Below, one piece after another: positions 1,681 to 50,392 of a DNA stretch of 64,000 nucleotides. The DNA is from an uncultured Thermodesulfobacteriota bacterium (GTDB lineage Bacteria > Desulfobacterota > WTBG01 > CAIYCZ01 > CAIRTM01): assembly GCA_964387595.1 (NCBI GenBank), contig CAYLYF010000005.1:2220-66219 (forward strand), read 5' to 3'. The notes beneath the pieces were generated by a model. It saw only the letters and a program-made list of their open reading frames with translations. It was not told where the DNA came from and searched no databases. The position numbers and the translations under genes are program-made. Every line of letters begins with the position of its first letter. Within the stretch, counting starts at the first letter, position 1.

Positions 1681-1695
1681 TTTTATTCCTTCCTG

Positions 1696-2973: not shown

Positions 2974-3003
2974 TTTATACTTCCTCCTTTGTTTAGTTTC
3001 TAC

Positions 3004-6272: not shown

Positions 6273-7622
6273 TTAATTTGTACTCGTGTTATTCGGAAAA
6301 CCGGATCGTTTACAGCCCTTAAAGATCTCCTGCAAAGGATCAGTTTTCATTCTTTTAAGTTTCTGGAACACATCAGGACGATCTTTAGAAACGATCGGCA
6401 TAATTTCAGCCATGGCAGCAGCAACAATTTTAGGAGTTTCATAGGGATCAAGAATACTACGCAGTGTCTTTGTAATTTTACTAAGCAGATAATCAATATC
6501 ATCTACTGTGAGGCAATAAGGCATAACTGCATTACGGATCATGTCACGATGGTCAAGTTTATCGATAATCTCCTTGCGCCACCAGTCAAGATAGACAAAC
6601 ACGCCCTCGCGAGAAATATTTCCTTCAGTTAACGCATATTTTACAGCGTTAGCAGCTTTCCAGCCGCTGATGATCGCTCCGGTCATTTCAGCTTCTTGAC
6701 ACCATACTGCATCAGATACCAGAAGGACCTGGTCTTTATATGGATCAATAATATGAGAATACATATTGCCTTCAATACACAAGGGGCGGATTGTTTCAGC
6801 ATTTTTAAACCAGGGTGCGAAATAGCCCTGCTGGGTAAAACGCTCAAAAGCCCCTTTCACATCTGCGCCGGGATGAGTACAGCTGATAAACGGAAAATAA
6901 GTCTCACCGTCAGCCCGGGGAGTCATCCAGATGCGCATAGGGGTCTTTTCACCCAGAAAAATCTGGAACAGCGCATATTTTTCAGAGGGCTCCACCCCCT
7001 GCATCTCAAAACCATAACTGGTACTGGTCCCGTAATAAATACGATCTTTGTTTTTCCCCAGAGTTTTTGCCAGACGGGAAGCTCTGCCGTCAGCACCGAT
7101 CACAAAGGTTCCTTTAAATTTTGTCCCTTCACGGGTATAAACAGTAACCTGGCCGTTTTGGGTCTGTGTGCCGGTTACATTATGTCCAGGAAAAACATCG
7201 ACACCATATTTTATGCATTCTTTCATCAGACTTTTAAGCAGAGCCCCTTTATCATAGGTCGCGCTGATCCGGCCTTCATCACCCATAGCCTCGTTTTTTT
7301 CATAATCTCCCAGCTGTATTTTGTTCCCTTTATAAGAATATATAGACCAGGAATAAAAATTCTGATGTTTCCCTTCATAGGGAATGGTAAATCCATACGC
7401 CGGAAAGCAGAGCCGCTGGTTCCGTGAATTAATTGAAACGCGGTCTCCCAGATAACAGCCGGTCAGGGTAACGATCATCATGCTGCAGGCACGGTTAATA
7501 TCGGTAATATTTTTTTTCCTTTCAATCAGAGCAACTTTCAGTCCCTGTTCGCCGGCCGTTTTTGCCGCCATTAAACCTGCGGGACCTGCCCCGACAATAA
7601 TTACATCATATACATTTGCCAT
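6273..7622 (-). CDS. NAD(P)/FAD-dependent oxidoreductase, geranylgeranyl reductase/FixC-like (paralog 1)
   Basis: 449 aa. DVIIVGAGPAG Rossmann motif, VIGADGRAS, LVSDA motif. Confidence 0.85.
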   Translation of the reverse strand: MANVYDVIIVGAGPAGLMAAKTAGEQGLKVALIERKKNITDINRACSMMIVTLTGCYLGDRVSINSRNQRLCFPAYGFTIPYEGKHQNFYSWSIYSYKGNKIQLGDYEKNEAMGDEGRISATYDKGALLKSLMKECIKYGVDVFPGHNVTGTQTQNGQVTVYTREGTKFKGTFVIGADGRASRLAKTLGKNKDRIYYGTSTSYGFEMQGVEPSEKYALFQIFLGEKTPMRIWMTPRADGETYFPFISCTHPGADVKGAFERFTQQGYFAPWFKNAETIRPLCIEGNMYSHIIDPYKDQVLLVSDAVWCQEAEMTGAIISGWKAANAVKYALTEGNISREGVFVYLDWWRKEIIDKLDHRDMIRNAVMPYCLTVDDIDYLLSKITKTLRSILDPYETPKIVAAAMAEIMPIVSKDRPDVFQKLKRMKTDPLQEIFKGCKRSGFPNNTSTN

Positions 7623-8386: not shown

Positions 8387-10186
8387 TTATTTCCGGGTCT
8401 GATTGTCTGTATCAAAATTTACAAAATTCATCACATGCTTTGCCAGCAATTTTCCAACTCTTGGGTCATCATTTGGCGGTCGATAGTATGCCCAGGTCCC
8501 GGTATACTGGTCCTGTACCGGACTGTTTTTATCGGGGTTGCCCACATAAGGATCATAACCCAGATGCCCGTATTCGCAGACATCAAAAGCCAGATACGGA
8601 TCCATATCGCTCATAGATGAATTTATATTTGTCTGTCTCGGCGGCGGATAAACTCCTCCGTCTTCACAGCCGCCCATTTCAAAACAGCATTCTTCTTCAC
8701 CGCACTGCGTATCCACCCAAATCCCCCAGTAATCCGCAAAAGGATAGCCATCTCCAGCATATGAAACTGAATCCCCTGTGTCCGCATACAACCAGTTCTG
8801 GGTACCGATTTCTTTAGCAATCTGGTTATGCTGTTCAACCAGATTTAAAACTGAATCAGTTATGATCTGAGGAAATCCGATAACGATATGCTTCACACCA
8901 CGGTCTTTAAAATATTCAAGCGCATCCCAGTAGAGATATCCCCATTCATCACCCGGCAGCACATAACCCGTGGTTTCGTATAGCCATGCATGACCAATGT
9001 TTTCGCCGCGCATTTCCCGAGATCTCTCGGTTTTACCATTTTCAGGATTTAGCTCCTTAATTCCCATAAAGGCACCGACTATATTTTCAGGATCCATATC
9101 CGGATGCCGTTCCAACAGTATACTCTTAATGTTTTCATTAAGAACAATCGTGTCATTTATTTTAGGATCGAATGCCTGGTTGTAATCGTGTACAGCATGA
9201 TTTAAAAGGAGAACCGCCGTCTCATTATCAGAAACCGCATCTGACCAGGAATCTTCAATTCCATCGGCCTGGAGTTCTGCCAGTTCAGTATCGTTTGATA
9301 TGGGGTTCTGGTCTGCTGCATAGGTAACAGATACATCATTTTCAGGAGCGCCTTTGCTTCTGGTCCAGTTTTTATCAGCTGGAAAAGATCGTTCCATCAA
9401 TTTTGTATAATCATTCACCCAGATAAGAGGAGTCGCAGGATCCGGTGCCGGTATTACAAACTCGTAATCATTGGGATAATAAAGCAGATGCGGAAATGCA
9501 TAATGCGAAACATCCTCGCCTGCCATCCAGGCAGCCCAGTCAACTTCAAAGCTGAAATCTTCTGAAGCGTCCTGAAGATCCAGTTCATCTTTCATATCCT
9601 GAAGCTGTTGTGCTGTAATATCGTCAAAAGGATCGATCCCGCCGAGTTTTTCATATTCATATGCATATTTAAGAACTTCTTTTTCAGCATTACCACTGCT
9701 CAGAATACCGCCCCATAGATTTTTATTCGGTAGATAAAGCATATTAACAGGATGGTTAGGGTCATAGGAAAACATCTGGGTTGAGGCATCCCAGAGATGC
9801 TGCGGCTTATAGGTTGTAAAACCGCCGTGAACCACAAATATCACACCGATTTTATTTGGATCAGCAACAACCGGGCTTGCTGCTTCAGCCTGTTGGGCCT
9901 CCCAGGCATTCATGGCTGTTTTGGTCATCTGTACCACGTCAAAAGTCTTGGCAAAGCGGACTCCTCCCACGGTCAGATCAATCATGATTATCCGGGAAAC
10001 CCCTTTATTCAGGAGTCTTTCCGCCGGGCCTAAAACATCATAGCGTTCGGAATCACAGTCAGTCCATGGACCGTCATCTTCTTTTTCACCACAGTAGTTA
10101 ATGGAATCTTTTGTACAGGAGGATAAAAACATTCCTGTAAAGAACAGGATAAGTAAAACCAATAAAGTGTTTTTGTTAATCTTCAT
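8387..10186 (-). CDS. Lipoprotein with ferrochelatase/class II chelatase-like motifs in unusual order
   Basis: Signal peptide with lipobox LSSC. HemH/CbiX-like segments IGVIFVVHGG, KLGGIDPFDDITAQQL, AVLLLNHAV, DALEYFKDRGVKHIVIGFPQIITD. Start set at the second Met (MKINK); the ORF track starts at 10201. Confidence 0.6.
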   Translation of the reverse strand: MKINKNTLLVLLILFFTGMFLSSCTKDSINYCGEKEDDGPWTDCDSERYDVLGPAERLLNKGVSRIIMIDLTVGGVRFAKTFDVVQMTKTAMNAWEAQQAEAASPVVADPNKIGVIFVVHGGFTTYKPQHLWDASTQMFSYDPNHPVNMLYLPNKNLWGGILSSGNAEKEVLKYAYEYEKLGGIDPFDDITAQQLQDMKDELDLQDASEDFSFEVDWAAWMAGEDVSHYAFPHLLYYPNDYEFVIPAPDPATPLIWVNDYTKLMERSFPADKNWTRSKGAPENDVSVTYAADQNPISNDTELAELQADGIEDSWSDAVSDNETAVLLLNHAVHDYNQAFDPKINDTIVLNENIKSILLERHPDMDPENIVGAFMGIKELNPENGKTERSREMRGENIGHAWLYETTGYVLPGDEWGYLYWDALEYFKDRGVKHIVIGFPQIITDSVLNLVEQHNQIAKEIGTQNWLYADTGDSVSYAGDGYPFADYWGIWVDTQCGEEECCFEMGGCEDGGVYPPPRQTNINSSMSDMDPYLAFDVCEYGHLGYDPYVGNPDKNSPVQDQYTGTWAYYRPPNDDPRVGKLLAKHVMNFVNFDTDNQTRK

Positions 10187-10248
10187 AACATTACCCTGCA
10201 TTTTTAGATTAATTAATTATTGGCTTATACTATTTTTTTTAAAACAGC

Positions 10249-11562
10249 TCAGCCCTTAACGATGTCTTCTGATGATGATTTCCAGTGTTTTTCAATAACA
10301 GCCGCAATTTTGGGTTTCTCTTTTCTGATCTGGTCAATATGGCTCATGATGGCCTTTTCCATCACATAGCCAGCCGTATTTTCGCTGACGTATCCGGCAT
10401 ATTCTTCATTGTTGGTCAGGCTGAAAATATAATCGAGTTCCTCATCCTGGAGCTGTCCGAGGCCGAACGCCTGCAATGCCTTTTCAATTTCACCGGGCCA
10501 GCAGTATTCAAAGCTTTCCCGCCAGAAATTAGTGTAGTCATCATATCCTTTTCCGGTCCCCAGAACTTTAAGCGCAGCTTGGGCTGCCAAATAACCATAC
10601 ATCAGTGCAGACTGACAATAGGTTTCAATAAACGCCGCAGAATCCCCCACCACAACAATATTTCCCTCAACCGGGTTCATAATACAGGTATAAAAATTAA
10701 GCATGCATGCCGCCTTGTGAACAATCTTGGCATTATGAAACCATTCCTTAAACGGTCCTTCGGTTAAAAACCAGTCCAGTCCCATTTTAGCCGGCATACC
10801 GCAGGGAGTTCCGCAAAAAACATCCAGGATAGGTTTGTCCCCTTCCTTTGCGTCAGCCAGATACTTGGGTACCATATAGATCTGGCCTTTGCCCCAGGGT
10901 GTATGTCCCTTGCCCACACAGGTTATCCAAGAATCCCAGTTTGGATAATCCACCTCATCCAGAAAATAGGAGGCCACCCTGTACGACCCAAAATATTTTC
11001 GGGTTTTGAACAGCTCAAGACCGGTGACAATCTGTGAGTTACAACCGTCCGCCGCGAAACAAACCCTGCACCAAACTTCTTTCTGCGTTCGCGTATGACT
11101 ATCACGAATCGTGACCTTTACCTTCCCGTCAATATTTTCCGCTCGGATACCCGCTGTTTCGGTCAGGATATCAACGCCATTGGCCAGAGACTCTTCCAGA
11201 AGATTTCGCAGGATGATCTCTTTAGTATACGGCAGAGCTACCCCGTTTTCACGGTTGACTATGGTCAGCTTGTTGCCGCCGGTTGACATCCTGGAGCTTT
11301 TAACCAGCTTCACATGAGGATGCCCATATTTTACGGTGATACCGGTTTTTTCAAAGTGCAGATCATTGTCAACAAAACGAACGGTTTCCCCATGGGTATT
11401 GGGTTCGTTAATCAGCATGGTACAGCAGGAACGGTAAACCTTTGATATTTCTTTTTTGATGTCGATTAGAAGAACATCCTGACTGGCAGCGGAGAGCTCT
11501 TTAGCGATCATCAATCCCGCAGGCCCTGCGCCTACCACGATAAAATCATATATTTTATTCAT
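10249..11562 (-). CDS. NAD(P)/FAD-dependent oxidoreductase, GGR/FixC-like (paralog 2)
   Basis: 437 aa. DFIVVGAGPAG, FAADGCNS, VVGDSA. Start overlaps the stop of the upstream ferredoxin. Confidence 0.85.
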   Translation of the reverse strand: MNKIYDFIVVGAGPAGLMIAKELSAASQDVLLIDIKKEISKVYRSCCTMLINEPNTHGETVRFVDNDLHFEKTGITVKYGHPHVKLVKSSRMSTGGNKLTIVNRENGVALPYTKEIILRNLLEESLANGVDILTETAGIRAENIDGKVKVTIRDSHTRTQKEVWCRVCFAADGCNSQIVTGLELFKTRKYFGSYRVASYFLDEVDYPNWDSWITCVGKGHTPWGKGQIYMVPKYLADAKEGDKPILDVFCGTPCGMPAKMGLDWFLTEGPFKEWFHNAKIVHKAACMLNFYTCIMNPVEGNIVVVGDSAAFIETYCQSALMYGYLAAQAALKVLGTGKGYDDYTNFWRESFEYCWPGEIEKALQAFGLGQLQDEELDYIFSLTNNEEYAGYVSENTAGYVMEKAIMSHIDQIRKEKPKIAAVIEKHWKSSSEDIVKG

Positions 11563-11792
11563 GAACGCTCCCCTTTTTCGTACGTATCGCTAGTGAAATT
11601 AAGCAACAATATTTCCGGAAAGCGACAGTCGCAATAAATCGCATCCACACCGCAGGCAGCCCTGCAGGTACCACACTCTATACAGGATACTTGATCAATA
11701 AAAGACTTGTCCTCGACGAACCGTATGGCCAGTCTCGGGCAGAGATTAACACAGGCTCCGCAGCCTACGCATATTTCACGATCTACTTTCAT
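11559..11792 (-). CDS. 2x[4Fe-4S] ferredoxin
   Basis: 77 aa. CVGCGACVNLCP and CIECGTCRAACG. Confidence 0.92.
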   Translation of the reverse strand: MKVDREICVGCGACVNLCPRLAIRFVEDKSFIDQVSCIECGTCRAACGVDAIYCDCRFPEILLLNFTSDTYEKGERS

Positions 11793-11832
11793 AACCTATC
11801 CACATCCATTTATAGTTAATATCGCTTACCAA

Positions 11833-12597
11833 TCATGTACGGCAATGACGGCAAATATCATAAAAATCTTTTGACAATCCGGCTTCTTTGGAAAAATAAG
11901 CCAGCTGATTTTCAGGTGCAAAAGTTTCTCCGCATTCTTTGCAGGTTTTGAGCTTGAGATTAACTTTCCAGTTCTGAATGATCCTTGCAGGCCCCTGTAC
12001 TTTGGTACCGTCATGGGCAACAGCTGTTTCACCTTCCTCAATATCAATAAGCTTTATGGCACCGGTCGGACAGATTTCCGCACAGGTACCGCAGCCGATA
12101 CAGTCTTCTGCTTTTTCATAGAATGGAGATACTGCCAGCTTTTCATAACCGCGGTTAGCAAAACCAATGGCGCTCATACCGACCAGTTCGCTGCAGGCCC
12201 GGACACATCTGCCGCAGGCAATACAGAGTTCGTTCCTTGGCGCAAAGCGTTTCACCGGTTTAACCCCAAGGTCACGTGCCAGATCCTGAATTACTTTTGC
12301 CTCAGGCGCTTCTGACAACAGCAGTTCAATAATGCAGGCCCGAATACCCCTGATCTTTTCTGTGGCTGTAAGAACGGTCAGGCCCTCTTCAGCCTTATAT
12401 ACGCAAGAACTGACAACATGTGACACACCGCCTCTGTTTATTTCTACCACACACAGCCTGCATCCACCCGTTGGGGTGAGTGAATCATGATGACATAAAG
12501 TTGGGATCCAGACACCGATCTTTTGAGCTGCCTGTAAGAGAGTGGCTCCTTCCGGAACCTGTACCTGAACTTCATCAATTTTGAGTGTTACCATCAT
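11833..12597 (-). CDS. NuoG/HydA N-terminal-like (HoxU/BamI-type) Fe-S subunit without a catalytic domain
   Basis: 254 aa. [2Fe-2S] motif IPTLCHH..GGCRLCVVE..SSC, two [4Fe-4S] motifs (CIACGRCVRAC, CIGCGTCAEICP), extra C-terminal CKEC..CRHC. No H-cluster or Mo-bisPGD domain. Confidence 0.88.
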   Translation of the reverse strand: MMVTLKIDEVQVQVPEGATLLQAAQKIGVWIPTLCHHDSLTPTGGCRLCVVEINRGGVSHVVSSCVYKAEEGLTVLTATEKIRGIRACIIELLLSEAPEAKVIQDLARDLGVKPVKRFAPRNELCIACGRCVRACSELVGMSAIGFANRGYEKLAVSPFYEKAEDCIGCGTCAEICPTGAIKLIDIEEGETAVAHDGTKVQGPARIIQNWKVNLKLKTCKECGETFAPENQLAYFSKEAGLSKDFYDICRHCRT

Positions 12598-12671
12598 AAC
12601 TCCTTGGAATATAAGGAAAAGACTTAAATACTCTAAACCTTTTCCTGTTTATAACATAAATATCCAACCTG

Positions 12672-14543
12672 TTAGGTCAGTACAGCGCCCACAGGACAAA
12701 TTTCTGAGCAGGCGCCGCACTTGATGCATTTTTTTAAATTAATTTTATGCGCCTTTTTCTTTTCACCGCTTACAGCTGCACTGGGGCAGGCCTTTAGACA
12801 GGCACCGCATCCAATACATGCTTTTTTATCAATTGAATATTTAACAAGTTCACGGCATACACCTGCCGGACATTTCTTATCCTTAATATGCGCCAGGTAC
12901 TCATCCTTAAAATATTTCAAGGTAGACAGTACCGGGTTAGGTGCTGTCCGGCCAAGTCCGCACAAAGCTGAGTCCTTAATCGTACCCGCCAGTTTTTCAA
13001 GCAATGCAAGGTCTTTTATCGTTCCACGGCCTTCACATATGTCCTCAAGAATTTCTCTCATTCTTCTAACGCCCACACGGCAGGGAGTACACTTACCGCA
13101 GGATTCGTCTTCCAGAAACCTGAGGAAATAAAGAGCCACATCGACCATACATGTTTTTTCATCCATGACGATCAGACCGCCGGATCCCATAATAGAACCG
13201 GTCTCAGCCAGTTTATCATAATCCACAGGCATATCGATCAGACTTTCAGGGATACAGCCGCCGGACGGGCCGCCGGTCTGAACAGCTTTGAATGCCTTAT
13301 CTCCAGGAATACCGCCGCCGATATCAAAAATAATTTCCCGCAGGCTTATTCCCATAGGCACTTCGACCAGTCCTACATTATTAACTTTTCCAACCAGAGA
13401 AAACACCTTGGTTCCCTTACTGGTTTCTGTTCCCACAGCAGAAAACAATTTTGCACCGTTCTTAACCAGAGCTGGAACATTGGCCAGAGTTTCAACATTA
13501 TTTATTATGGTGGGACATCCATACAAGCCCTGTACAGCTGGGTATGGCGGTCTTTGCTGCGGTTCACCGCATTCACCTTCAACAGACTGAATCAAAGCTG
13601 TTTCTTCACCACATACAAAGGCACCGGCACCCCGACTGATACGGATATCAAAACTAAAATCAGACTTTAAGACTGAATCACCGATAATACCGTTTTCACG
13701 GGCCTTTTCAATGGCTATCTCCAATCGCTGAATCGCCAGTGGATATTCATCTCTCACATAGATCACGCCCTGGGAAGCACCGACAGCATAGCCGGCAATG
13801 AGCATGCCCTCTATTACTGCATGCGGATCGCCTTCAAGGATACTTCTGTCCATATAGGCACCCGGATCACCTTCATCCGCATTACATATAATATATTTTT
13901 GTTTACCGCGAGCCTTTCGACAGGTCTTCCATTTAAGTCCGGTTGAGAAACCGCCACCGCCGCGTCCGCGCAAGCCGGCTTTCTTCACTTCATTAATGAC
14001 CTGCATAGACGTTTTTTCACTCAGTGCAGTAGCCAGACCTTCATAACCGCCAAGGGCGACATATTCATCAATATTTTCCGGATCAATAATACCACAGTTG
14101 CGCAGCGCAACCCGATGCTGTTTGCAGTAAAAAGCATGGCTTTTGCTGTCAGGCACATTTTCACAGCAGGGCTCGTCAGCAGATGGATCTAATGATGTTT
14201 GTAGCAGCGCTCCTTCCGGAATCGTATCCAGTTTAATCGCAGCCAGTATTGCCTGAACTTCATCATGAGTTACCTTACCATAGGTCAGCCTGACTTTACC
14301 GGGTATCCAGACATCAACCAAAGGTTCCTGATGACACATACCGTTACATCCGGCTTTTTGAACTTGAACATCCATTTTGCGCTTTTTAATCCCTTTAATA
14401 AAAGCGTCCAAAACGGTCTGTGCACCTGCAGCAAGGCCGCAGGAGGCAAAACCAACCGAAATCTTGATTCGTTCGGGCAACAGTGAAGCCTGCCCGGATT
14501 TTTCCAGTTTCTCTAAATGCGTAAAAGGTTTACCCTTCATCAT
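12672..14543 (-). CDS. NuoF/HydB/HoxF-family NADH/FMN-binding subunit (long form)
   Basis: 623 aa. GLRGRGGGGF, NADEGDPGAYMDRS, GAGAFVCGEETAL, GGPSGGC, ESCGKCTPCR; N-terminal Trx-like [2Fe-2S] domain and C-terminal 2x[4Fe-4S]. Confidence 0.95.
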   Translation of the reverse strand: MMKGKPFTHLEKLEKSGQASLLPERIKISVGFASCGLAAGAQTVLDAFIKGIKKRKMDVQVQKAGCNGMCHQEPLVDVWIPGKVRLTYGKVTHDEVQAILAAIKLDTIPEGALLQTSLDPSADEPCCENVPDSKSHAFYCKQHRVALRNCGIIDPENIDEYVALGGYEGLATALSEKTSMQVINEVKKAGLRGRGGGGFSTGLKWKTCRKARGKQKYIICNADEGDPGAYMDRSILEGDPHAVIEGMLIAGYAVGASQGVIYVRDEYPLAIQRLEIAIEKARENGIIGDSVLKSDFSFDIRISRGAGAFVCGEETALIQSVEGECGEPQQRPPYPAVQGLYGCPTIINNVETLANVPALVKNGAKLFSAVGTETSKGTKVFSLVGKVNNVGLVEVPMGISLREIIFDIGGGIPGDKAFKAVQTGGPSGGCIPESLIDMPVDYDKLAETGSIMGSGGLIVMDEKTCMVDVALYFLRFLEDESCGKCTPCRVGVRRMREILEDICEGRGTIKDLALLEKLAGTIKDSALCGLGRTAPNPVLSTLKYFKDEYLAHIKDKKCPAGVCRELVKYSIDKKACIGCGACLKACPSAAVSGEKKKAHKINLKKCIKCGACSEICPVGAVLT

Positions 14544-15016
14544 TTATTGTCTTTTCTATATTGTTGAAGTAAATTTCCGGTTTTAACCTGAGTCATGCCG
14601 CCGTGAATATCGTCATTGATTTTAACCACCGGAGCCATACTGCAGCATCCGAGACAGCGGACTTTTTTTAAGGTAAACTCACCATCAGCACTGGTTCCTT
14701 CACCGGCTTCAATTCCAAGCTCACGGGAAACACTCTGCGTCAGGTTATCCGCATTTTTAACATGACAGGCGGTACCCGTACATACACTGACAGTGTTTTT
14801 CCCCTGGGGATCCAGACTGAATGAATGATAAAAAGAAGCAACAGCAAATATTTTACTGAGGGGAATCTCTAATTCTTCAGATGCATGCGACAAGACCTCC
14901 TTCGGCAGATAACCGAATTCTGACTGAATGTCCTGCAGCAGCGTGATCAGTGTTCCCTTTTCCTCTTTATGTTTTTGAACTATTTGCTTAACTTTATTTT
15001 TTCGTGGCAATTTCAT
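14540..15016 (-). CDS. NuoE/HydC-family [2Fe-2S] subunit
   Basis: LITLLQDIQSEFGYLP, VASFYHSF, VCTGTACHVK, VRCLGCCSMAPVV. Start set at MKLPRK (15016), overlapping the end of the PorB-like gene. Confidence 0.93.
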   Translation of the reverse strand: MKLPRKNKVKQIVQKHKEEKGTLITLLQDIQSEFGYLPKEVLSHASEELEIPLSKIFAVASFYHSFSLDPQGKNTVSVCTGTACHVKNADNLTQSVSRELGIEAGEGTSADGEFTLKKVRCLGCCSMAPVVKINDDIHGGMTQVKTGNLLQQYRKDNK

Positions 15017-15935
15017 GGATTGTTCCCGTTTTTTGAATGTCCTCATAAAATTCATCAACAGCCGTCTGAAATGCAGGCATCAGACTTGCTGGAAAGGTGA
15101 AAAAGCGCTTTTGTAAAGCCAGATATTCCTGAACCGGTTTACGGTTTTTCGACTGTATCGTGAGCCGGATAACACCGTCAATTACTTCGTACAGCGGAAA
15201 ATATCCGGTTAAGACCGCCCTGCGGCCGATATCAAGTGTTTTATTCGAAGCAAATATCCATCCGGTGGGGCACGGGGTCAAAACCAGGATAAAAGCATTA
15301 CCAGGACTGTCAAGGCCCCGACGGACCTTTTCGATCAGATCAAACGGATGGCTTGGACAGGCTGTTGCCATATAAGAAAAATCTTCTTTCGCAGCAACAG
15401 CGGGAATATTTTTTTGCCGGACAGCATCCCTGACATCCTTTTCATTAACAGAATGTTTTCTTTCATTCTGTATAAAAGGCCGGGGAATTGCCCTGCGGAT
15501 AAGTGTATCCATAGCAGGTTCATTATCAAAACAGACAATCAAAGCATTTTTATTCTTCAAAAAACGCTGTAAAACAACATAATCACTGTCAAGCACCTTT
15601 CGGTCAATCCCGATCACAGGCTTTTTAACCGCCACATGAGACGACTTAGACTGACGGGCTGACTTTGCATTAAAACTGTCTATTACAAAGACAAGTTTTT
15701 CAAGAGTGTCTGCTGTATTCACACGGTCATGTGCAAAAGTGTTTGCGCTCAGAGCCGAATTGGAAATTCCGGTATGACCGTTTATACCGCCCAGCGCCGG
15801 ATCTGCGCTATCAGTTACTTTGGATACAAGCCGTGCGGCCAGAGACTTAACACACCCTTTACATGAGCGCCTTCCGCTTAGAAAGCGTTCCTGACGGGGT
15901 AAAATTTTCGGTACAAATACAGAGAACCTATCCAT
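14994..15935 (-). CDS. Degenerate 2-oxoacid:ferredoxin oxidoreductase beta-subunit-like protein (PorB/PadI-like)
   Basis: Retains SGRRSCKGC, CFDNE, YMATACPSHPFDL, TPCPTGW and GYFPLYE, but lacks the GDG TPP-binding motif. GGAGG RBS before MDRFSVF. Confidence 0.75.
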   Translation of the reverse strand: MDRFSVFVPKILPRQERFLSGRRSCKGCVKSLAARLVSKVTDSADPALGGINGHTGISNSALSANTFAHDRVNTADTLEKLVFVIDSFNAKSARQSKSSHVAVKKPVIGIDRKVLDSDYVVLQRFLKNKNALIVCFDNEPAMDTLIRRAIPRPFIQNERKHSVNEKDVRDAVRQKNIPAVAAKEDFSYMATACPSHPFDLIEKVRRGLDSPGNAFILVLTPCPTGWIFASNKTLDIGRRAVLTGYFPLYEVIDGVIRLTIQSKNRKPVQEYLALQKRFFTFPASLMPAFQTAVDEFYEDIQKTGTIHEIATKK

Positions 15936-15958
15936 TAATAAGTTGCCTCCCAAACATA

Positions 15959-16249
15959 TTATTTAACCAGCCACGGAGCGCGCTCTACGGCAATTTCCAG
16001 TGATATACAACCGGTGACACACTGCTGTATGCAAAGACCGCAGCCTTTACAATACGTTAAATCCGCTGCATAGAATCCGTCTTCATTTTGAAAAATGGCA
16101 CCGTCAGGACAGGACAGATAGCATATTCCACAGCGCACACATTTTTGCGTATCCCATACAGGCCTCTCAAAACGCCAGTCATCATTTATCTTAAAATCAT
16201 CAGTAATTGGATTAACGGACCCAAATTTTATACAATCTTGTTTTTTCAT
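15959..16249 (-). CDS. 2-oxoacid:ferredoxin oxidoreductase delta-subunit-like ferredoxin (PorD/PadF-like)
   Basis: 96 aa. DWRFERPVWDTQKCVRCGICYLSCPDG and CKGCGLCIQQC. Confidence 0.88.
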   Translation of the reverse strand: MKKQDCIKFGSVNPITDDFKINDDWRFERPVWDTQKCVRCGICYLSCPDGAIFQNEDGFYAADLTYCKGCGLCIQQCVTGCISLEIAVERAPWLVK

Positions 16250-16335: not shown

Positions 16336-17661
16336 TCAATAACAGGGATAGCCTATCCGGCTGGCCTTACTCATCATTAAAGCTGCTCTTTCCGGGGTAA
16401 ACATCTCAATTTTTTTAGCAATTATCGGACGCTCTTTTCTGATGGTTTCCAAATGTGGTTTTAAGCCCTGGCTGATCCCCCGGTACATCAAAAAGGGATT
16501 CATCGTCCAAGGAAGCTTGGTGTCAACGATCTGGTGGAGATAGTTATGCTCCTCCTCATTAAACAGCCTGTTAAATACTGGATATAAAACAAATTCTTTA
16601 TAATCATGGGTTTCCACCCAGTTTTTCTGCCACCAGTCAATATAATCTTTCACCCCTTCACGGTTCACCTGGCCTGTATGCAGGGCTTTACACACAGCAT
16701 TTGCCGCCTTATGTCCCGATAGCAGCGCACCGGTATTTTCCGCTTCAGCAAACCAGCAGCTGTCTCCCACAAATATTATATTATCCTTAAAAGGCTCTTT
16801 GGCAGGGCTCCAGTTGCTTATAACTGCACAGCGCTCATGGGTAATCTCCACATTCTTAAACCAGTGCTTATAGTTACTTTGCTGAGTCAGATATTCAAGC
16901 CGTTCCTTACCTTGAATATAAAGCCAGTATTCGTCCGGACTGTAAACACTTGGAAGCATACTGAACATGATCGTACCCAGCTGACCCGGACCATAACAAA
17001 GTCCAAGAGCGATCATTTCGGAGCGGTCAAATTCAACCCCAGTGATATAGTAGCTGTTGGCACGGCCGGTATTAATAAAAATCCGGTCACGATTCAGACC
17101 CGAGATCCGGGCAAGTCTTGAATTAGCACCATCGGCAGCTATACAGAAGCTGCCCGTAAAAGAATCTCCTTCCGCTGTTTTAACACGGACACCCTCCGGG
17201 GTGTTTCTGGCAGAAATCACATTCCGGCCCAGATAAAAATCTACAGTTGCCTGAATTCCCTCTTCATAAATACCGCCAAGGAGTGCGCCTTTATCAAAGA
17301 CAACCGCGGGCACACCCGCACCGGAAGCATTTTTTTCATAATCACCGATCTCAATACGGTCTTTTCCATTTGGCGCAATAAAATGGAGGGCGTAAAATTC
17401 ACGATAATCGCCGGCATAGTTTACTGAGAAATTATTCACCGGAAATACCCAGCGTTTTTGCTCGCGTGAAAAGTACATGTTTTCATTATAGAATGAATCC
17501 ATATTCAGCAGAAACATCTGCGCACAGGACCGCTGAATCTTTGCAGGATCTGTTTTGCGTTCGATCAATGCTACTTTCAGTCCGTTCTGAGCCGCAGTTT
17601 TTGCCGCTTCAAGTCCAGACGTTCCACCGCCAACAACGATTAAATCATATTTTTCAGACAT
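16336..17661 (-). CDS. NAD(P)/FAD-dependent oxidoreductase, GGR/FixC-like (paralog 3)
   Basis: 441 aa. DLIVVGGGTSG, IAADGANS, FVGDSC. Clearly alignable to 6273-7622. Confidence 0.85.
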   Translation of the reverse strand: MSEKYDLIVVGGGTSGLEAAKTAAQNGLKVALIERKTDPAKIQRSCAQMFLLNMDSFYNENMYFSREQKRWVFPVNNFSVNYAGDYREFYALHFIAPNGKDRIEIGDYEKNASGAGVPAVVFDKGALLGGIYEEGIQATVDFYLGRNVISARNTPEGVRVKTAEGDSFTGSFCIAADGANSRLARISGLNRDRIFINTGRANSYYITGVEFDRSEMIALGLCYGPGQLGTIMFSMLPSVYSPDEYWLYIQGKERLEYLTQQSNYKHWFKNVEITHERCAVISNWSPAKEPFKDNIIFVGDSCWFAEAENTGALLSGHKAANAVCKALHTGQVNREGVKDYIDWWQKNWVETHDYKEFVLYPVFNRLFNEEEHNYLHQIVDTKLPWTMNPFLMYRGISQGLKPHLETIRKERPIIAKKIEMFTPERAALMMSKASRIGYPCY

Positions 17662-17922: not shown

Positions 17923-18303
17923 CTATTTTAGTGACGCAATATTTTCATAAAATGAATCTATTACCGGTACCATAAGTGCCGATATCTCTTTAAGAAATGA
18001 TTTTCCAAAGGAAGTCAGCGAATAATACTTTCTGTTTGCACCCTGAGCAGACGGTTCTTTGATACTTTTAAGAATTCCTTCTGCCTCCAACGTCCGCAGT
18101 TTTTTGTAAAGGTTATTGCGGTCAATGTCAAAAGCACCTTCTGTAATAGTATAGATCTCATCCTTTATTTCATAAGCATATTTTGGGCTTCTGCTGATAA
18201 GAGACAGTACTGTAAATTGCAGAAATCCCCGTTTAATGTCAAATTGAAGTTGTTCAAGATGCTTACTCAGTATTTGCTGCTCGTTGATGTTTAATTTCAC
18301 CAT
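17923..18303 (-). CDS. PadR-family transcriptional regulator
   Basis: 126 aa. YAYEIKDEI, NLYKKLRTLEAEG, NRKYYSLTSFG. Confidence 0.9.
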   Translation of the reverse strand: MVKLNINEQQILSKHLEQLQFDIKRGFLQFTVLSLISRSPKYAYEIKDEIYTITEGAFDIDRNNLYKKLRTLEAEGILKSIKEPSAQGANRKYYSLTSFGKSFLKEISALMVPVIDSFYENIASLK

Positions 18304-18632
18304 TTTTTCAGCCTTGAGTAAAGGTTAGAGATATAGTTTGATAAGATACATTTACACACACTAGTTCTAACAAAATTAAAAGTCAAGCATGAAATTATTT
18401 TTTTGAAGCTTAAGATTAGAATAAATATAAATTGAGGACCGTCAAGGTCCGGAATCCATATCGCCACATCACATTATTTAAATGTTTAATAACAAATGCT
18501 GTTTTGAACAATAACCGTTAAATAACAAATCATGAAAAGACCTATACATAAATATCTCTTGAATTAGTTTTTTAAATCAGGTATATCTTCTTGCAAAATA
18601 GATAAATTTTTTTAATAAAAAAATAAGAATCA

Positions 18633-19016
18633 ATGAAAACCAAAAAAAATAAATTATTAGAAAAAGAAATAATCAAACAGCATCATGATCAGATCGTATT
18701 TGACCTGAAACGGGCCTTCCTGCAATCTATAACCCTGATATTGATCAATCAGGGATCAAAATACACATATGAAATAAAGGCCGATATCTTAAAACTCTCA
18801 AAAGGCGGTTTTGACATTGACCGTAATAATCTCTATAAAAAGCTGAGATCGCTTGAAAAAGACGGTGTCCTAGACAGTCATCTTGAACCTTCCGCTAAAG
18901 GAGCACAGCGTAAATACTATACCATAACACCCCAGGGACAAGAATTGCTGACCAGAAGCATCGCGACTTTATCTCCCCTGATCTCTTCATTAAAGGAACA
19001 TCTTGTGAACAGGTAA
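18633..19016 (+). CDS. PadR-family transcriptional regulator (divergent paralog)
   Basis: 127 aa. YTYEIKADI, FDIDRNNLYKKLRSLEKDG, RKYYTITPQG. Confidence 0.9.
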   Translation: MKTKKNKLLEKEIIKQHHDQIVFDLKRAFLQSITLILINQGSKYTYEIKADILKLSKGGFDIDRNNLYKKLRSLEKDGVLDSHLEPSAKGAQRKYYTITPQGQELLTRSIATLSPLISSLKEHLVNR

Positions 19017-19089
19017 AGACTCAATAGTTAACCTTAAGGTCACCCTGCAATCTATAATAATTTCGGAATCTCCTGATTATAACCAGCAA

Positions 19090-19290
19090 AATCAGGATCG
19101 ATAATTATTTTGGTACCGCAATGATCAGCGTTATAAAGCGGATTAGAGGGGCCCGCTTAAAAAAGTAATTCCCTGTCAAAATTAAACAACTCTTTCTTTA
19201 CTGCTTCATCAATAACAAATTCAGTAGCCCCTTTAACAGAAATACTGGCATGGTCGTCTGGACGGTACTAAAAATACCCGCCTTAAATTG
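19090..19290 (-). pseudogene. Remnant of a pyridoxamine 5'-phosphate oxidase-like (split-barrel) gene
   Basis: Hand translation *YRPDDHASISVKGATEFVIDEAVKKELFNFDRELLF*AGPSNPLY resembles the C-terminal half of PNPOx-like/general stress proteins. In-frame stops; no start. Confidence 0.4.
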
Positions 19291-19330
19291 TTGAAAACTT
19301 CACAAACTTTCTTCGATTTACCCCTTTTTT

Positions 19331-19876
19331 CTATCGTGTCCAGGAAACGCGAAATATCCCTTCCGCTGGATTTGTGTATCTAATCCGATTGGGCTCAATG
19401 ACGATGATTTTGTGATTAAATTTAGGGTTGAGGTTTTTTGACTGAATTTTTCTACCTCCGATAACAATGTTCATTGCTTTAAATGCTTTTTCAAACAATT
19501 CGGAGTCCTCTTTTCTGCTGTAAATTACCGCTTTCCCCCATGCCTGCAGTCCCTTGTAACCCCAGAAATCATCAGCGAGATTATAGGGTTCTGCAATCGA
19601 AAAAGCGATCTTTTTGTTTTTTTTAAGGTTGCTAAACTTACTGCCCCCCTCGGAAAGAACATAAAAGGTTAATCCGCGCGACATGTATCCAACAGGGGTG
19701 GAACGCGGGGCATCATTTTTTGACGTGCACAGGTGCAGGACCTCATTTCTTTTAATAAACTTTATAAGATCTTTTTCAAAGGAGCTTGCCGATCGGTAAT
19801 TTTTTAATTTCAACCCCGATTTCTTAAAAACCTCTGTTACATTTGTTGGTATAGAATCCTGTTTAATTTTTGACAT
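19331..19876 (-). CDS. Pyridoxamine 5'-phosphate oxidase family flavin-binding protein
   Basis: 181 aa. LHLCTSKNDAPRSTPV, KFSNLKKNKKIAFSI, GLQAWGKA. Confidence 0.85.
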   Translation of the reverse strand: MSKIKQDSIPTNVTEVFKKSGLKLKNYRSASSFEKDLIKFIKRNEVLHLCTSKNDAPRSTPVGYMSRGLTFYVLSEGGSKFSNLKKNKKIAFSIAEPYNLADDFWGYKGLQAWGKAVIYSRKEDSELFEKAFKAMNIVIGGRKIQSKNLNPKFNHKIIVIEPNRIRYTNPAEGIFRVSWTR

Positions 19877-19955
19877 ATCACTTCACCTTTCTTGAGATTT
19901 ATGTTAACCGGTTATCTGCTTCGATTAAGTAATTTTGAAAAAAAATAGTAATTAT

Positions 19956-19974
19956 CCACGGCTAAAAGCCGTTG
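19956..19974. repeat. IS200/IS605-end-like hairpin
   Basis: CCACGGCTAAAAGCCGTTG (stem ACGGCT/AGCCGT). Resembles the CCACGGCTAAAGCCGTGG-type subterminal hairpins of IS200/IS605 elements. No transposase nearby. Confidence 0.35.
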
Positions 19975-20044
19975 TTTTATCTTGTAATAAAATTCATCAA
20001 TTAAAAAACTCACAAGCCGTACGGCTCTCATGCTGTAATATAAA

Positions 20045-20495
20045 ATTTACCTGTATCCGTAGCCGAATGCCCCCCAGATTAGTCAGGGGCATTCGGTACA
20101 GACGCAAAGAGCCTTCACCTGCAGCAAACATATCCGCCCTTTTTTCAAGATCCTTAATAGAACGCCTAAGTTCATGATATATGATCTTTAGACATTAAAG
20201 AATATCTTCTCACTGGAAAGAATTTCTGCCCTGGACTCTACAATCGCAGCCCGGTAATTATGGCCGCGGTGATCACCGTCACAGATCTTAAAAGAAGCCG
20301 CCCGATTTTTTTCAATACAGCGGTTCATGCGGCCGCCGCGTTTTGTTCCGGTATAAAGATATAAAGATATTAATCATCTGTTGCAAATGATGTTTCAACT
20401 GCATAGGGCTTCCCCTTATCTACGACAATCAAGGTACCCAAGATCTGATCATTCATAAGCTTCTTGATTTCCGGTTCAGTAATTGACTGTCTCAT
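20045..20495 (-). pseudogene. PNPOx/NimA-like flavin-nucleotide-binding protein pseudogene
   Basis: MRQSITEPEIKKLMNDQILGTLIVVDKGKPYAVETSFATDD* then YLYTGTKRGGRMNRCIEKNRAASFKIC. TAA at 20370-20372, 8-bp tandem duplication ATAAAGAT (20353-20368), a further frameshift and stop near 20200. Confidence 0.75.
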
Positions 20496-20689
20496 ATCTT
20501 CCAATTCTCCAAAATATTCATAAAATAATTTAACCCGTCACACTTTTAAAACTGACTTCTTAACAAATTAATATTGCAAATCCTTCCATGGTACTATCTT
20601 TTCACATGTATTCTCTTACACTTGTTAAGAATATGTAACATGTTTTTTTTACCGTGTCAACACATGTGCGCTGTTAAACAGCTCGCATA

Positions 20690-21077
20690 AGTGTGACCAT
20701 CCCGCCCTGGCCGAAGATGCCTTTTAGCCGGACTGATACATGATGCGGGCAAACTTATTTTTGATCAGTACATTCTGCAAAGAATTGATGTTTTTCAGCA
20801 AAAACTGGGAAATAAAAATATATATTTTAAGTACCGAAAAAGAGATTCTTGGATTTGATCATGCTGAAATAGCCTCTGGCGTCTGTGAAAAATGGCAGAT
20901 TCCTTTGCATTAAGGTGCGGTCTTGGCGAGGGTATTGACGGAATGAAATATGAAATGGATATAAAAGCAATGGAATTCTTAAAACTCAAAGACAGCGATG
21001 TTCAGATGATAATCGGTGAAGTTCTTGAGTATATAGAACAAACCACACAATCTATTAATAAATGCCTCACACTATGA
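20690..21077 (+). pseudogene. HDOD-domain protein pseudogene (C-terminal part)
   Basis: Pieces in changing frames: HPALAEDAF / AGLIHDAGKLIFDQYIL / TEKEILGFDHAEIASGVCEKWQIP / MADSFALRCGLGEGIDGMKYEMD. Confidence 0.7.
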
Positions 21078-21239
21078 ATTTTCAAATCGTCCTTTTATAA
21101 CCATCAATTGACTTATCCTCAATAATTCCATAAAATCCTGTAAGTAGCGTGAGAATGTCTTAGGCATGTAATCTCCGAACTAAAGTACATATTTTCCACG
21201 GCACGAACCAAAATCTTTATTTAGTTAAGGAATTCAAGG

Positions 21240-22778
21240 TTGACAAATATTAAGATAAACAGCCAGTTTAAAAGTGCACTTAAACTGATTAAAAATTCAA
21301 ATGAATCCGTATTTATTACAGGAAAAGCAGGCACAGGCAAATCAACTTTTCTTCAATATGCACGCCGGAACATAAAAAAAAACATGGTTGTTCTTGCACC
21401 TACCGGTGTTGCAGCGCTTAATGTTAAAGGTGAGACAATCCATTCTTTTTTTCATTTTAAACCCGGAATCACACCCAAGGATGCGGAAAAAAAAGCTAAG
21501 AAAAATATTGATAATGCTCTATACAAAAAGATTGATACCATCCTGATCGATGAGATCTCAATGGTCAGAGCGGACCTGCTGGACTGCATTGATACATTTT
21601 TAAGAACCTTTCTGAACAGCGATCAACCTTTTGGCAATATCCAGATGGTGTTTATCGGCGACCTGTATCAGCTGCCGCCTGTGGTGACAAACCATGAAAG
21701 GGAAATGTTCAGTAAATATTACGAATCACCTTTCTTTTTCTCGGCAAATGTAATTATAAAAGATAAATTTAAATATCACTATGTCGAACTTGAAGAAATA
21801 TACCGTCAGAAGGATGATCATTTCATTGAGATCTTAAATGCTGTCCGAAACAATTCTGCAACTGCAAAACATTTTGAATATATAAACAGAAATGTCATTG
21901 ATGACCAATTCGAAGAGGACCAGGGCTTTATTTTCTTAACGACTCTGAACCGGAGCGCCGACGAAATAAACGCTTATAAGCTTTCAGCCTTAAGCACAAA
22001 ACTGTTTATTTCAAAAGCAGAAATAGACGGTGAATTTGAGCTTAACGCTGCACCCACTTCAGTTAAGCTGGCTTTAAAACCGGGGGCCCAGGTTATGTTT
22101 TTAAATAATCATTCTGACGGACTCTGGGTTAACGGTACCGTAGGCATCATTGAAGAAATAGATAATTCAGAAATATTTGTCAGAACTGATAATAATCTGG
22201 TTGTATCAGTAAATAAGCACAAATGGTCTCTTTACAAATACATATACGATTCAGAAAACAAGAACCTTATCCAGGAAAAAACAGGGGATTTTCTTCAGTA
22301 TCCGTTAAAACTTGCATGGGCAATAACTATACATAAAAGCCAGGGGAAAACATTTAAAAAAGCAATCATTGATCTTAAAAACGGTACTTTTGCACATGGA
22401 CAGTCCTATGTAGCACTCAGTCGATGTGTTTCTCTAAATGGGATCGGACTTGTTCATCCGCTAAAGAAGAACCACATTAAAACCGACCATAGAATAATAA
22501 ATTATTTAACAAAACTTCAATATGACGCGGCAGAAGACAGATGCCCGACAGCTGATAAAATCAAGATCCTAAAAGATGCAATTAATAAAAAGAGCTTAAT
22601 TAATATTGTTTATTTAAAGCCAAACGACCATAAATCCACCCGCACGATCAAACCATTTTTCCTTGGCGAAAAAAAATACAGGGACAATAAATACATTGGA
22701 CTGGATGCTTACTGCATGAAAGATAATACAGACAGGATCTTTAGAATTGACAGAATACTTGAGATAAATGAAAAGTAA
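21240..22778 (+). CDS. Pif1/RecD-like SF1B helicase with C-terminal WYL domain
   Basis: 512 aa. ITGKAGTGKST, LAPTGVAA, IDEISMV, GDLYQLPPV, YRQ, QYPLKLAWAITIHKSQG, GQSYVALSRC; C-terminal IVYLK..STRTIKP..LDAYCMKDNTDRIFRIDRI (WYL). Confidence 0.9.
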   Translation: MTNIKINSQFKSALKLIKNSNESVFITGKAGTGKSTFLQYARRNIKKNMVVLAPTGVAALNVKGETIHSFFHFKPGITPKDAEKKAKKNIDNALYKKIDTILIDEISMVRADLLDCIDTFLRTFLNSDQPFGNIQMVFIGDLYQLPPVVTNHEREMFSKYYESPFFFSANVIIKDKFKYHYVELEEIYRQKDDHFIEILNAVRNNSATAKHFEYINRNVIDDQFEEDQGFIFLTTLNRSADEINAYKLSALSTKLFISKAEIDGEFELNAAPTSVKLALKPGAQVMFLNNHSDGLWVNGTVGIIEEIDNSEIFVRTDNNLVVSVNKHKWSLYKYIYDSENKNLIQEKTGDFLQYPLKLAWAITIHKSQGKTFKKAIIDLKNGTFAHGQSYVALSRCVSLNGIGLVHPLKKNHIKTDHRIINYLTKLQYDAAEDRCPTADKIKILKDAINKKSLINIVYLKPNDHKSTRTIKPFFLGEKKYRDNKYIGLDAYCMKDNTDRIFRIDRILEINEK

Positions 22779-23066
22779 TAAACCCGGAAGATCAAAAAAA
22801 GTCATACCGAAAGTCCCGGATATCAGTCGGTAAAAACGATGGTGAATAATTCTGTTATAAAATATATAAGAACTGATAAATGATTTTGTTTACGCCTGAT
22901 CCAATCAGTCAGTGGGTCGGGAAGGTCAAGCAGTTTTTAATGATCTGTGAGCCGGATTTTGAATTCATACAGGTATTCTGGGAGAATTTTGGACGGTATT
23001 GTCTACTGGATTTAAAGCTGAAAATCAGTTCTTAAGGTCTGATCCTCAGCCCTATCAATTATCAAA

Positions 23067-23267
23067 TTACGGCCTATACTGAAAACGCATTGCTTTACGT
23101 TTTCTTCTTACTGCTTCAAGTTTTTTTCTTTTCTTTTTAACGCTTGGTTTTTCATAGAAACGCCTGCTTCTAAGCTCTCTTAAGAGTCCATCTATCTGAA
23201 CTCTTTTTTTAAAAAGCCTTAAAGCTCTTTCTATGTCGCCGCCTCTAATTTCTACAGAAATTGACAT
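23067..23267 (-). CDS. rpsU: 30S ribosomal protein S21
   Basis: 66 aa. IERALRLFKK, RRFYEKPSVKKKRK. Confidence 0.95.
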   Translation of the reverse strand: MSISVEIRGGDIERALRLFKKRVQIDGLLRELRSRRFYEKPSVKKKRKKLEAVRRKRKAMRFQYRP

Positions 23268-23605
23268 TTTTAACCTCTATTAATATATTTTAAAATATAA
23301 TTATTAACTTATTTTAACTAAATGATTCAAATTTATATACTTATTTATATCTTTACTGAATTTGTCAGCTTACCTCTTTTGAATTTTAAATAATAAATTA
23401 AAAATGTTTCTATGTCAATAAAAATAAATCATCCTGTATTCAGAATGTTTCCTAAGTATTTGATTAATAATGAAAATCAGCATCCCGGATCGAAAGTCTT
23501 CAATTATAGATTACAAATATCCAAATCATATTTAATCTGATTGACATCTATGCTCATATTTTTATAGTATTACAAAAATAGTAAATACGATAAGGAAACA
23601 GCAGC

Positions 23606-26676: not shown

Positions 26677-26677
26677 T

Positions 26678-50374: not shown

Positions 50375-50392
50375 ATTAATTTCCTCCAATTT

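Follow-up and report, generated by a model that had tools for sequence, protein, structure and literature searches.

What remains for the beta subunit of a 2-oxoacid:ferredoxin oxidoreductase (OFOR) to do once its thiamine pyrophosphate (TPP) site and its alpha and gamma partners are gone, and why should its gene stand beside those of an NADH-oxidizing module? This question is raised by a 64,000-nucleotide stretch of DNA from an uncultured Thermodesulfobacteriota bacterium (contig CAYLYF010000005.1, positions 2,220 to 66,219; hereafter the window), in which the interval 14994-16249 holds two minus-strand open reading frames (ORFs) of a long operon, one for a PorD-like delta subunit and the other for a TPP-less PorB homologue that we call PorB*. 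A preliminary description of the interval had seen in it a PorB homologue that keeps its iron-sulfur (Fe-S) ligands and has lost its TPP motif, and had proposed either a non-catalytic Fe-S adaptor in a bifurcating module or a recent relic of a Pad or Por operon. The comparative evidence favours the first of these two proposals, in a modified form: PorB* is probably an exapted pseudo-enzyme which, together with PorD, would serve as a non-catalytic Fe-S conduit and scaffold between the NADH module and a set of flavoprotein reductases related to geranylgeranyl reductases (GGRs). The core genes, in the order of their transcription, are the following.

15959-16249, minus strand: PorD-like delta subunit, a 2x[4Fe-4S] ferredoxin of 96 amino acids (TIGR02179 PorD_KorD)
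14994-15935, minus strand: PorB*, the TPP-less OFOR beta homologue, 313 amino acids from the ATG at 15935
14540-15016, minus strand: NuoE/HoxE-type [2Fe-2S] subunit, BfuC-like (Pfam 2Fe-2S_thioredx, E = 2.9e-48)
12672-14543, minus strand: NuoF-type FMN/NADH subunit, 623 amino acids (Pfam Complex1_51K, NADH_4Fe-4S and Fer4)
11833-12597, minus strand: short BfuA/HoxU-like subunit (as the N-terminal part of NuoG), 254 amino acids (Pfam Fer2_4 and Fer4)
11559-11792, minus strand: small 2x[4Fe-4S] ferredoxin of 77 amino acids, Fdx77 (Pfam Fer4)
10249-11562, minus strand: GGR-like FAD protein of 437 amino acids, FAD437 (NCBIfam GG-red-SF)

PorB* is a homologue of OFOR beta subunits over its full length. 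The NCBIfam PorB model matches residues 16-307 with E = 1.2e-42, and the best matches among the sequences of the PDB are the beta subunits of oxalate oxidoreductase (OOR; 5c4i_C, 3e-32) and of the pyruvate:ferredoxin oxidoreductase (PFOR) of M. acetivorans (9bt4_C). The same proteins (OOR beta 5exd/5c4i and PFOR beta 9bt4_C) head the Foldseek matches of an AlphaFold2 (AF2) model, at template modelling (TM) scores of 0.60-0.64 (the model itself has a predicted local distance difference test score, pLDDT, of 81 and a predicted TM score, pTM, of 0.84). The family scores lie far below their cut-offs, with 146 bits against 405 for PorB, 132 against 590 for the OOR beta model, 64.8 against 700 for PadI and 56.6 against 150 for PadF, and Pfam TPP_enzyme_C finds no match in PorB*. 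Its start was listed as the TTG at 15953; the ATG at 15935, 10 nucleotides after a GGAGG, is likelier. The frame is uninterrupted and its 3′ end overlaps the start of nuoE (likely the ATG at 15016) by 23 nucleotides.

In OFORs, the GDG motif and a downstream Asn provide the Mg2+ and diphosphate ligands of TPP (PMC5020499). At the position of GDG, PorB* has I110-D111-R112 (within IGIDRKVLDSD), and at that of YMNTGxQ it has AMDTLIR. Throughout the 22 family members aligned, GDG has become [ILV][DNS]R and YMNTGxQ has turned variable (in one subgroup, C, the whole segment is deleted), so that both TPP motifs are lost in 22 of 22, whereas 51 of 51 canonical PorBs aligned keep both. The loss reported in the preliminary description is thus borne out, and the motifs that it quoted (CKGC, TPCPTGW, IGIDRKVLDSD and AMDTLIR), its coordinates and the overlap with nuoE are all found as it gave them. 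Its internal control is equally sound, since the KorDABC genes of the same window (24389-27280) are intact, with POR_N plus PFOR_II, TPP_enzyme_C with SGDGD...NN, and POR. Among the proteins of the PorB* operon no POR_N or POR Pfam domain is found, in agreement with the reported absence of PorA and PorC.

The claim that PorB* keeps its Fe-S ligands stands only in part. Cys25 and Cys28 (in CKGC) and Cys222 (in TPCPTGW) are retained, together with the 'DNE' strand, and these three cysteines are invariant in all subgroups of the family. The proximal cluster of canonical beta subunits is held, however, by four cysteines (those of CxxC, a 'tGC' cysteine about 25 residues on, and that of PCP), and the 'tGC' cysteine, present in 51 of the 51 canonical PorBs, occurs in none of the 22 family members. 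The stretch where it once stood is hypervariable in PorB* and is modelled with a pLDDT below 50. Three other cysteines were considered as the fourth ligand and rejected: Cys193 ('ATAC') is common to the closest canonical PorBs and absent in L005, L014, L057 and subgroup C, Cys135 ('CFDNE') is found in canonical PorBs too and is missing from some members, and Cys81, an extra cysteine of PorD, is not invariant.

The partner of PorB* is better preserved. The PorD-like protein scores 74.6 bits on TIGR02179, above the cut-off of 60.05, as expected from the preliminary description, and it carries two CxxCxxCxxxC(P) motifs whose eight cysteines are invariant across 18 loci; its gene lies directly upstream of that of PorB* wherever the contig covers that side. 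Compared with OFOR beta subunits (domain VI; 5c4i/5exd, 9bt4_C), then, PorB* shares the fold (TM about 0.63), the CxGC and PCPTGW motifs, the 'DNE' strand and a PorD-type gene upstream, but differs in the absence of GDG, YMNTGxQ, the third cysteine and the alpha and gamma subunits, in scores far below the cut-offs, and in an operon that is that of an NADH module and not a por operon. Out of five defining features only the fold is present; the TPP motifs, the four cysteines, an alpha gene and a score above the family cut-off are all missing, and because these four were tested and found wanting, PorB* is not a functional member of the OFOR beta family but would act like an OFOR domain VI stripped of catalysis. 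The labels that its relatives carry in the databases are 'hypothetical protein' or 'pyruvate ferredoxin oxidoreductase beta subunit', and the latter is misleading for PorB*.

A search of 5.8 billion proteins with PorB* gave 514 matches, the best 120 of which (each a cluster) are 36-83% identical to it, none of them with a Pfam domain. In a scan with one genome per species, the GDG-less form is found in about 25 species-level metagenome-assembled genomes (MAGs), all of which carry the label Thermodesulfobacteriota, 'delta proteobacterium' or Proteobacteria or are unclassified ('uncultured bacterium'). When 1.84 billion representatives were searched with a profile, two further subgroups were added to this group, A: B, of about 283 amino acids and with 'APCPTGC', and C, of about 240, which lacks the central part of the domain, GDG strand included (some 60 core residues shed). 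Both carry 'MDRFSVYVPKLLP..E.F' as a signature at the N-terminus, keep the cysteines of CxxC and PCP, and lack the third cysteine. Identity between subgroups falls to about 30%, and in a rough neighbour-joining analysis A, B and C come together as a single clade in 292 of 300 bootstraps. Several PorB-like proteins without GDG or YMNTGxQ (P0288, P0303, P0310, P0347, P0351, P0352 and P0383) fall outside this clade, and in several of these singletons the third cysteine is still there. Judged from their sequences, their TPP sites seem to have degenerated independently; the TPP motifs would then have been lost more than once, since such degenerate forms lie outside the A+B+C clade.

Selection was estimated by the Nei-Gojobori method from pairs with a synonymous divergence (dS) of 0.3-1.1. 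The ratio of nonsynonymous to synonymous changes (dN/dS) is 0.12-0.20 for PorB*, 0.035-0.16 for its operon partners and 0.035-0.067 for FAD437, so PorB* is under purifying selection that is 2-3 times more relaxed than that on its neighbours. The collection of orthologues had been set beforehand as the test of the preliminary description, and its outcome is clear: the same GDG loss recurs in the same context in about 25 genomes, with dN/dS far from 1. Of the two proposals made at that time, the recent relic of a Pad or Por operon is refuted by a conserved, monophyletic family with such dN/dS values, a fixed gene order and a weak PadI score.

The strongest evidence for our reading of PorB* is its genomic context. 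Transcription runs from a second GGR-family FAD protein (FAD441) through PorD, PorB*, NuoE, NuoF, the BfuA-like subunit, Fdx77 and FAD437 to a 604-residue lipoprotein, and besides the overlap of PorB* with nuoE there are overlaps of 4 nucleotides between nuoE and nuoF and between the ferredoxin gene and that of FAD437. The core order (PorD, PorB*, NuoE, NuoF, short BfuA, small ferredoxin, GGR-like FAD protein) is constant in all family loci with enough flanking DNA and the same in subgroups A, B (L093) and C (L092). Fdx77, with 71-91% identity across loci, always lies between BfuA and the flavoprotein. No homologue of PorA or PorC (KorA or KorC) lies within 10 kb of PorB* in the other genomes, among about 25 family loci examined; synteny is thus invariant over three subgroups, and PorA and PorC are absent. 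Canonical PorB loci with enough upstream sequence have PorA immediately upstream in nearly all cases, and NuoEF was found in none of the 60 canonical PorB loci fetched.

Some loci depart from the common arrangement at its edges. Six tandem GGR-like paralogues of 440-450 amino acids and two MarR genes precede the core in L093 (1-18873) and a seventh paralogue follows it, an array that suggests several substrates or several double bonds. PorD, PorB*, NuoE and NuoF recur in L089 and L090, and in the former, of subgroup C, a different flavoprotein is added: after PorD-PorB*-NuoEF come a 356-residue protein of no assigned function and two genes for ferredoxin-dependent bilin reductases (Fe_bilin_red; 11693-14431). 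NuoF appears split or frameshifted in this locus. A further arrangement is that of L008 (1-6884), in which PadR, FAD441, PorD, PorB* (72% identical), Fdx77, FAD437 and FAD449 follow one another without NuoE, NuoF or BfuA, with 46 nucleotides between PorB* and the ferredoxin gene. Known from one contig with 2x coverage, it may be a natural variant without the NADH module; because it keeps the reductases in the absence of NuoEF and BfuA, it hints that PorD and PorB* belong more closely with the reductases than with the NADH module.

The NADH side of the operon is of the Bfu type. The NuoF homologue has the N-terminal extension and the C-terminal 2x[4Fe-4S] domain of the BfuB/HydB architecture, and matches, over its full length, BfuB subunits of bifurcating enzymes in the PDB (9bov_B, HydB 7q4v_B, NfnB 9n5u_B and NiFe-HydB 7t2r_B, at E values between 1e-229 and 1e-218); the NuoE homologues (158-159 amino acids) correspond to the [2Fe-2S] subunit BfuC, and the BfuA-like protein carries the N-terminal [2Fe-2S] and [4Fe-4S] clusters without a catalytic domain, which completes the BfuABC architecture. 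The best PDB match of this last protein is the 247-residue WorA of WorABCSL (9mqx_A, E = 5e-46), a complex in which WorA relays electrons from extra subunits and ends in a zinc finger (PMC12318220). At the C-terminus of the BfuA-like protein (11833-12020, minus strand) a CxxC-x26-CxxC motif is kept in 16 of the 17 loci compared, with a variant in L093; it is similar to the zinc-finger end of WorA and may be a docking site for PorD/PorB* or for the ferredoxin. Bfu enzymes carry out their third reaction on extra subunits, with electrons fed via BfuA, and 18 of the 57 clades of the family are still uncharacterised (PMC9304861). The present operon fits the 'extra-subunit' types of this family, with a third-reaction module not described before; a search of the literature, including the supplement of Schut et al. 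(2022), turned up neither a TPP-less PorB nor the PorB* operon.

The likely clients of this module, missed in the preliminary description, are the flanking GGR-like flavoproteins. FAD437 is the one flavoprotein that is invariant across the loci. Its AF2 model (pLDDT 94) has the GGR fold, with the archaeal GGRs 3oz2, 4opt and 3atq at the top of the Foldseek matches (TM 0.64-0.73), and its score on the GGR family model TIGR02032 (69 bits, cut-off 159) makes it a distant member, with the FAD motif and the cysteines in place: G11, G13 and G16 are invariant, as is R44-S-C46-C47, where Cys46-47 occupy what we take to be the position of the GGR active-site cysteine. PDB sequence searches with the two flavoproteins gave only Rossmann-motif matches. 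An identity with FixC/ETF-QO was considered and rejected, as 7koe_C ranks 40th, well behind the GGRs. Paralogues of FAD437 with 40-45% identity occur in related clusters without PorB* but with other small Fe-S proteins, and no isoprenoid biosynthesis genes are consistently linked to the operon loci.

From these elements we infer the following scheme, in which every step is conditional. PorB* would have descended from an OFOR beta subunit, giving up TPP/Mg binding, parting from the alpha and gamma subunits and losing a ligand of the cluster, and keeping the fold, three invariant cluster cysteines and the partnership with PorD. The two proteins would then be the surviving electron-transfer half of an OFOR, with its distal, medial and proximal clusters, in which the two [4Fe-4S] clusters of PorD and a three-cysteine cluster in PorB* would make a three-cluster wire and a docking scaffold. 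A single complex would comprise PorD, PorB*, NuoE/BfuC, NuoF/BfuB, the short BfuA, the small ferredoxin and at least one GGR-like flavoprotein, with PorD/PorB* bridging the short BfuA (plus the small ferredoxin) and the reductases, which may occupy the side of the proximal cluster that formerly faced PorA and TPP. Electrons would run from NADH through the clusters to the FAD of the reductases and on to a C=C bond of a hydrophobic substrate. Ferredoxin, a possible co-substrate because NuoF is of the BfuB type, may act as a co-donor or as the acceptor of bifurcation; the latter is plausible because C=C reduction is a high-potential reaction, in which NADH could donate to both the alkene and ferredoxin.

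The non-catalytic role of PorD and PorB* in this scheme is what we consider probable, because the TPP site and the partner that binds the pyrimidine are gone while three ligands, PorD and the Bfu-adjacent position are conserved. The adaptor of the preliminary description thus survives, still as a reading of comparative evidence, but its premise of a full ligand set does not. Several points weigh against this role. Only three of the four cluster ligands are kept, and a conserved substitute sought in the family was not found; cluster binding by PorB* is not assured for this reason, and the missing ligand could mean a [3Fe-4S] cluster, a non-cysteine ligand, a ligand supplied by a partner, or no cluster. 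PorB* is moreover the least conserved subunit (e.g., 41% identity against 73-76% for the FAD proteins), the contacts among PorB*, PorD, BfuA and the flavoprotein are assumed, and NADH-driven C=C reduction does not in itself need so elaborate a relay. Finally, every carrier is an uncultured MAG and none a cultured isolate.

Among the other explanations, that of PorB* as a purely structural scaffold or assembly subunit, whose three cysteines would bind a structural metal or nothing while PorD, Fdx77 and BfuA carry the electrons, draws on the same facts: a canonical ligand gone without a conserved substitute, a rate of evolution 2-3 times that of its partners, and the core residues shed in subgroup C. 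We consider it unlikely. Many other Fe-S proteins have [4Fe-4S] or [3Fe-4S] sites with three cysteines, and the CxxC and PCP cysteines stay invariant across subgroups down to about 30% identity; they are exactly the ligands of the OFOR proximal cluster (PMC5020499). A different function would be given to the protein if its old TPP pocket had been remodelled for a new catalytic or ligand-binding role, for instance with another phosphorylated cofactor or substrate. In group A, Arg112 (in place of the second Gly of GDG), D137-x-E139 ('DNE') and a candidate basic patch (R22, R23, K30, R35, K39 and K105) are indeed invariant or nearly so. Subgroups B and C, however, do not keep these residues: DNE becomes F(V/N)E in B (LFVE in P0246, FFNE in P0254 and P0270), and in C the GDG strand itself is deleted, yet the operon context of both subgroups is identical. 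With the pyrimidine-binding partner domain of PorA also absent, a remodelled pocket seems to us quite improbable.

Two further explanations can be regarded as effectively excluded by motif loss, genomic context, dN/dS and the single clade. PorB* might be a true OFOR beta subunit with an alternative mode of TPP binding, borrowing its alpha and gamma subunits in trans, for which the complete Kor operon of the window, some 9 kb distant, offers KorA and KorC. Intact KorB and KorD are already encoded there, and in the other genomes neither PorA nor PorC stands within 10 kb of PorB*; after the loss of both TPP motifs and a cluster ligand, and without a TPP_enzyme_C match, this arrangement is very improbable. 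Decay would be suggested by the missing catalytic motifs and by a rate above that of the neighbouring genes, but it is hardly credible that a decaying remnant of a Por, Pad or Por-Bfu operon would persist as intact ORFs in about 25 species-level genomes and more than 100 metagenomic clusters, translationally coupled to nuoE, at dN/dS of 0.12-0.20 and in three deep subgroups of the same synteny.

The conduit formed by PorD and PorB* invites comparison with several known systems. The closest in gene content is Por-Bfu, predicted to be a pyruvate-oxidising BfuABC enzyme (Schut et al. 2022; PMC9304861) that has a TPP site and all four POR subunits, and which likewise joins POR-derived and BfuABC (NuoE/F/G-like) genes in one operon and occurs in anaerobes including syntrophic 'Proteobacteria'. 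The PorB* operon differs from it in having only the delta subunit and a TPP-less beta, with catalysis apparently left to GGR-like flavoproteins. By profile score the two canonical PorBs nearest to PorB* are P0247 and P0255, and both belong to plain porGDAB operons without NuoEF. A descent of PorB* from Por-Bfu is possible but finds no support in these operons. PadEFGHI, the NADH-dependent phenylglyoxylate dehydrogenase, differs in that the PorB* operon lacks a PadI with its TPP site, the alpha subunit PadG and the gamma subunit PadE.

In WorABCSL (9mqx; PMC12318220) we find the same short BfuA without catalytic domain, a C-terminal motif of four cysteines, the BfuB/BfuC core, and extra Fe-S subunits that join a separate catalytic subunit to BfuA; here, by contrast, the enzyme would be an FAD reductase and not a tungstopterin enzyme, and the connectors would be PorD/PorB* and the small ferredoxin instead of WorS. 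With the archaeal GGRs (3oz2, 3atq/4opx), FAD437 shares the fold, the Cys pair and the pairing of its gene with one for a small 2x[4Fe-4S] ferredoxin, but its identity is only about 17%, it comes from a bacterium (Thermodesulfobacteriota), a locus can hold as many as seven paralogues, and it is linked to an NADH module. The GGR of M. acetivorans needs an adjacent dedicated ferredoxin.

Around the core of the operon lie the following features of the window.

16336-17661, minus strand: second GGR-family FAD protein, FAD441, 441 amino acids (NCBIfam GG-red-SF)
8387-10201, minus strand: predicted lipoprotein of 604 amino acids downstream of the operon, with a signal peptide followed by a Cys at its N-terminus
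6273-7622, minus strand: third GGR-family FAD paralogue, FAD449, 449 amino acids (Pfam FAD_binding_3)
4809-6203: MFS transporter after the 449-residue FAD paralogue (Pfam MFS_1)
31-4536, minus strand: trio of a GlcD-like protein (FAD_binding_4 plus FAD-oxidase_C), a CCG/HdrD-like protein and a 550-residue FAD_binding_4 protein, downstream
17923-18303, minus strand, and 18633-19016, plus strand: divergent pair of PadR-family regulators upstream of the operon (Pfam PadR)

FAD441 is an accessory member, as its location differs among loci and some lack it. The orthologue of the 449-residue paralogue in L008 is 91% identical and follows the operon there. The 604-residue lipoprotein has no match in Pfam, NCBIfam or the PDB sequences; its orthologues, with 59-64% identity, adjoin the operon in L001, L003/L013, L005, L010, L012 and L014, and beside the operon in several genomes it is often followed by 220-residue proteins of no assigned function. 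The PadR pair is kept in most group-A loci, and groups B and C have MarR instead. The GlcD/CCG/FAD_binding_4 trio recurs near GGR-like genes in L001, L003, L023, L086-L088 and L093, with EtfAB adjoining it in L001 and L003, and could be part of the same pathway.

Between the operon and the Kor genes, positions 18000-24000 have a low GC content (0.35, against about 0.44 in the flanks) and may be an inserted segment, with genes for a PNPOx-like protein (19331-19876), a PIF1-helicase/WYL protein (21240-22778) and a Bax-inhibitor-like protein; in L003, L006 and L014, too, the operon has a PNPOx-like gene with it. Elsewhere in the window there are an ORF of 828 codons without Pfam match (33712-36198, minus strand), a 592-residue DUF6178 protein (37336-39114, minus strand) beside an NAD-dependent epimerase gene and an ABC_tran_2/ABC/transglutaminase cluster, and a hybrid-cluster (prismane) gene (51376-53019, minus strand) with ferredoxin-domain and HD-domain genes just downstream (49625-51139, minus strand), which appears unrelated to PorB*. 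An Rfam scan of the window found no RNA elements.

As a broader proposal, which we put forward tentatively and regard as rather doubtful, the operon could define an undescribed Bfu class, in which an OFOR remnant (delta plus TPP-less beta) would wire BfuA to GGR-like enzymes and couple NADH oxidation to the reduction of lipophilic C=C bonds and of ferredoxin, the alkene being the high-potential acceptor, while the former proximal cluster would now be a [3Fe-4S] or subunit-bridging cluster of shifted potential. In any case, the label 'pyruvate ferredoxin oxidoreductase beta subunit' would wrongly credit these genomes with an extra pyruvate oxidoreductase and calls for correction. If our reading is true, a subunit of a TPP enzyme would have been kept as a pseudo-enzyme for its Fe-S cluster and docking surface, an example of modular redox complexes rebuilt from parts, and GGR-like C=C reductases would be a new 'third reaction' module for the Bfu family. 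For the uncultured soil and sediment Thermodesulfobacteriota themselves, the operon points to an apparently regulated (PadR/MarR) reductive metabolism of hydrophobic compounds.

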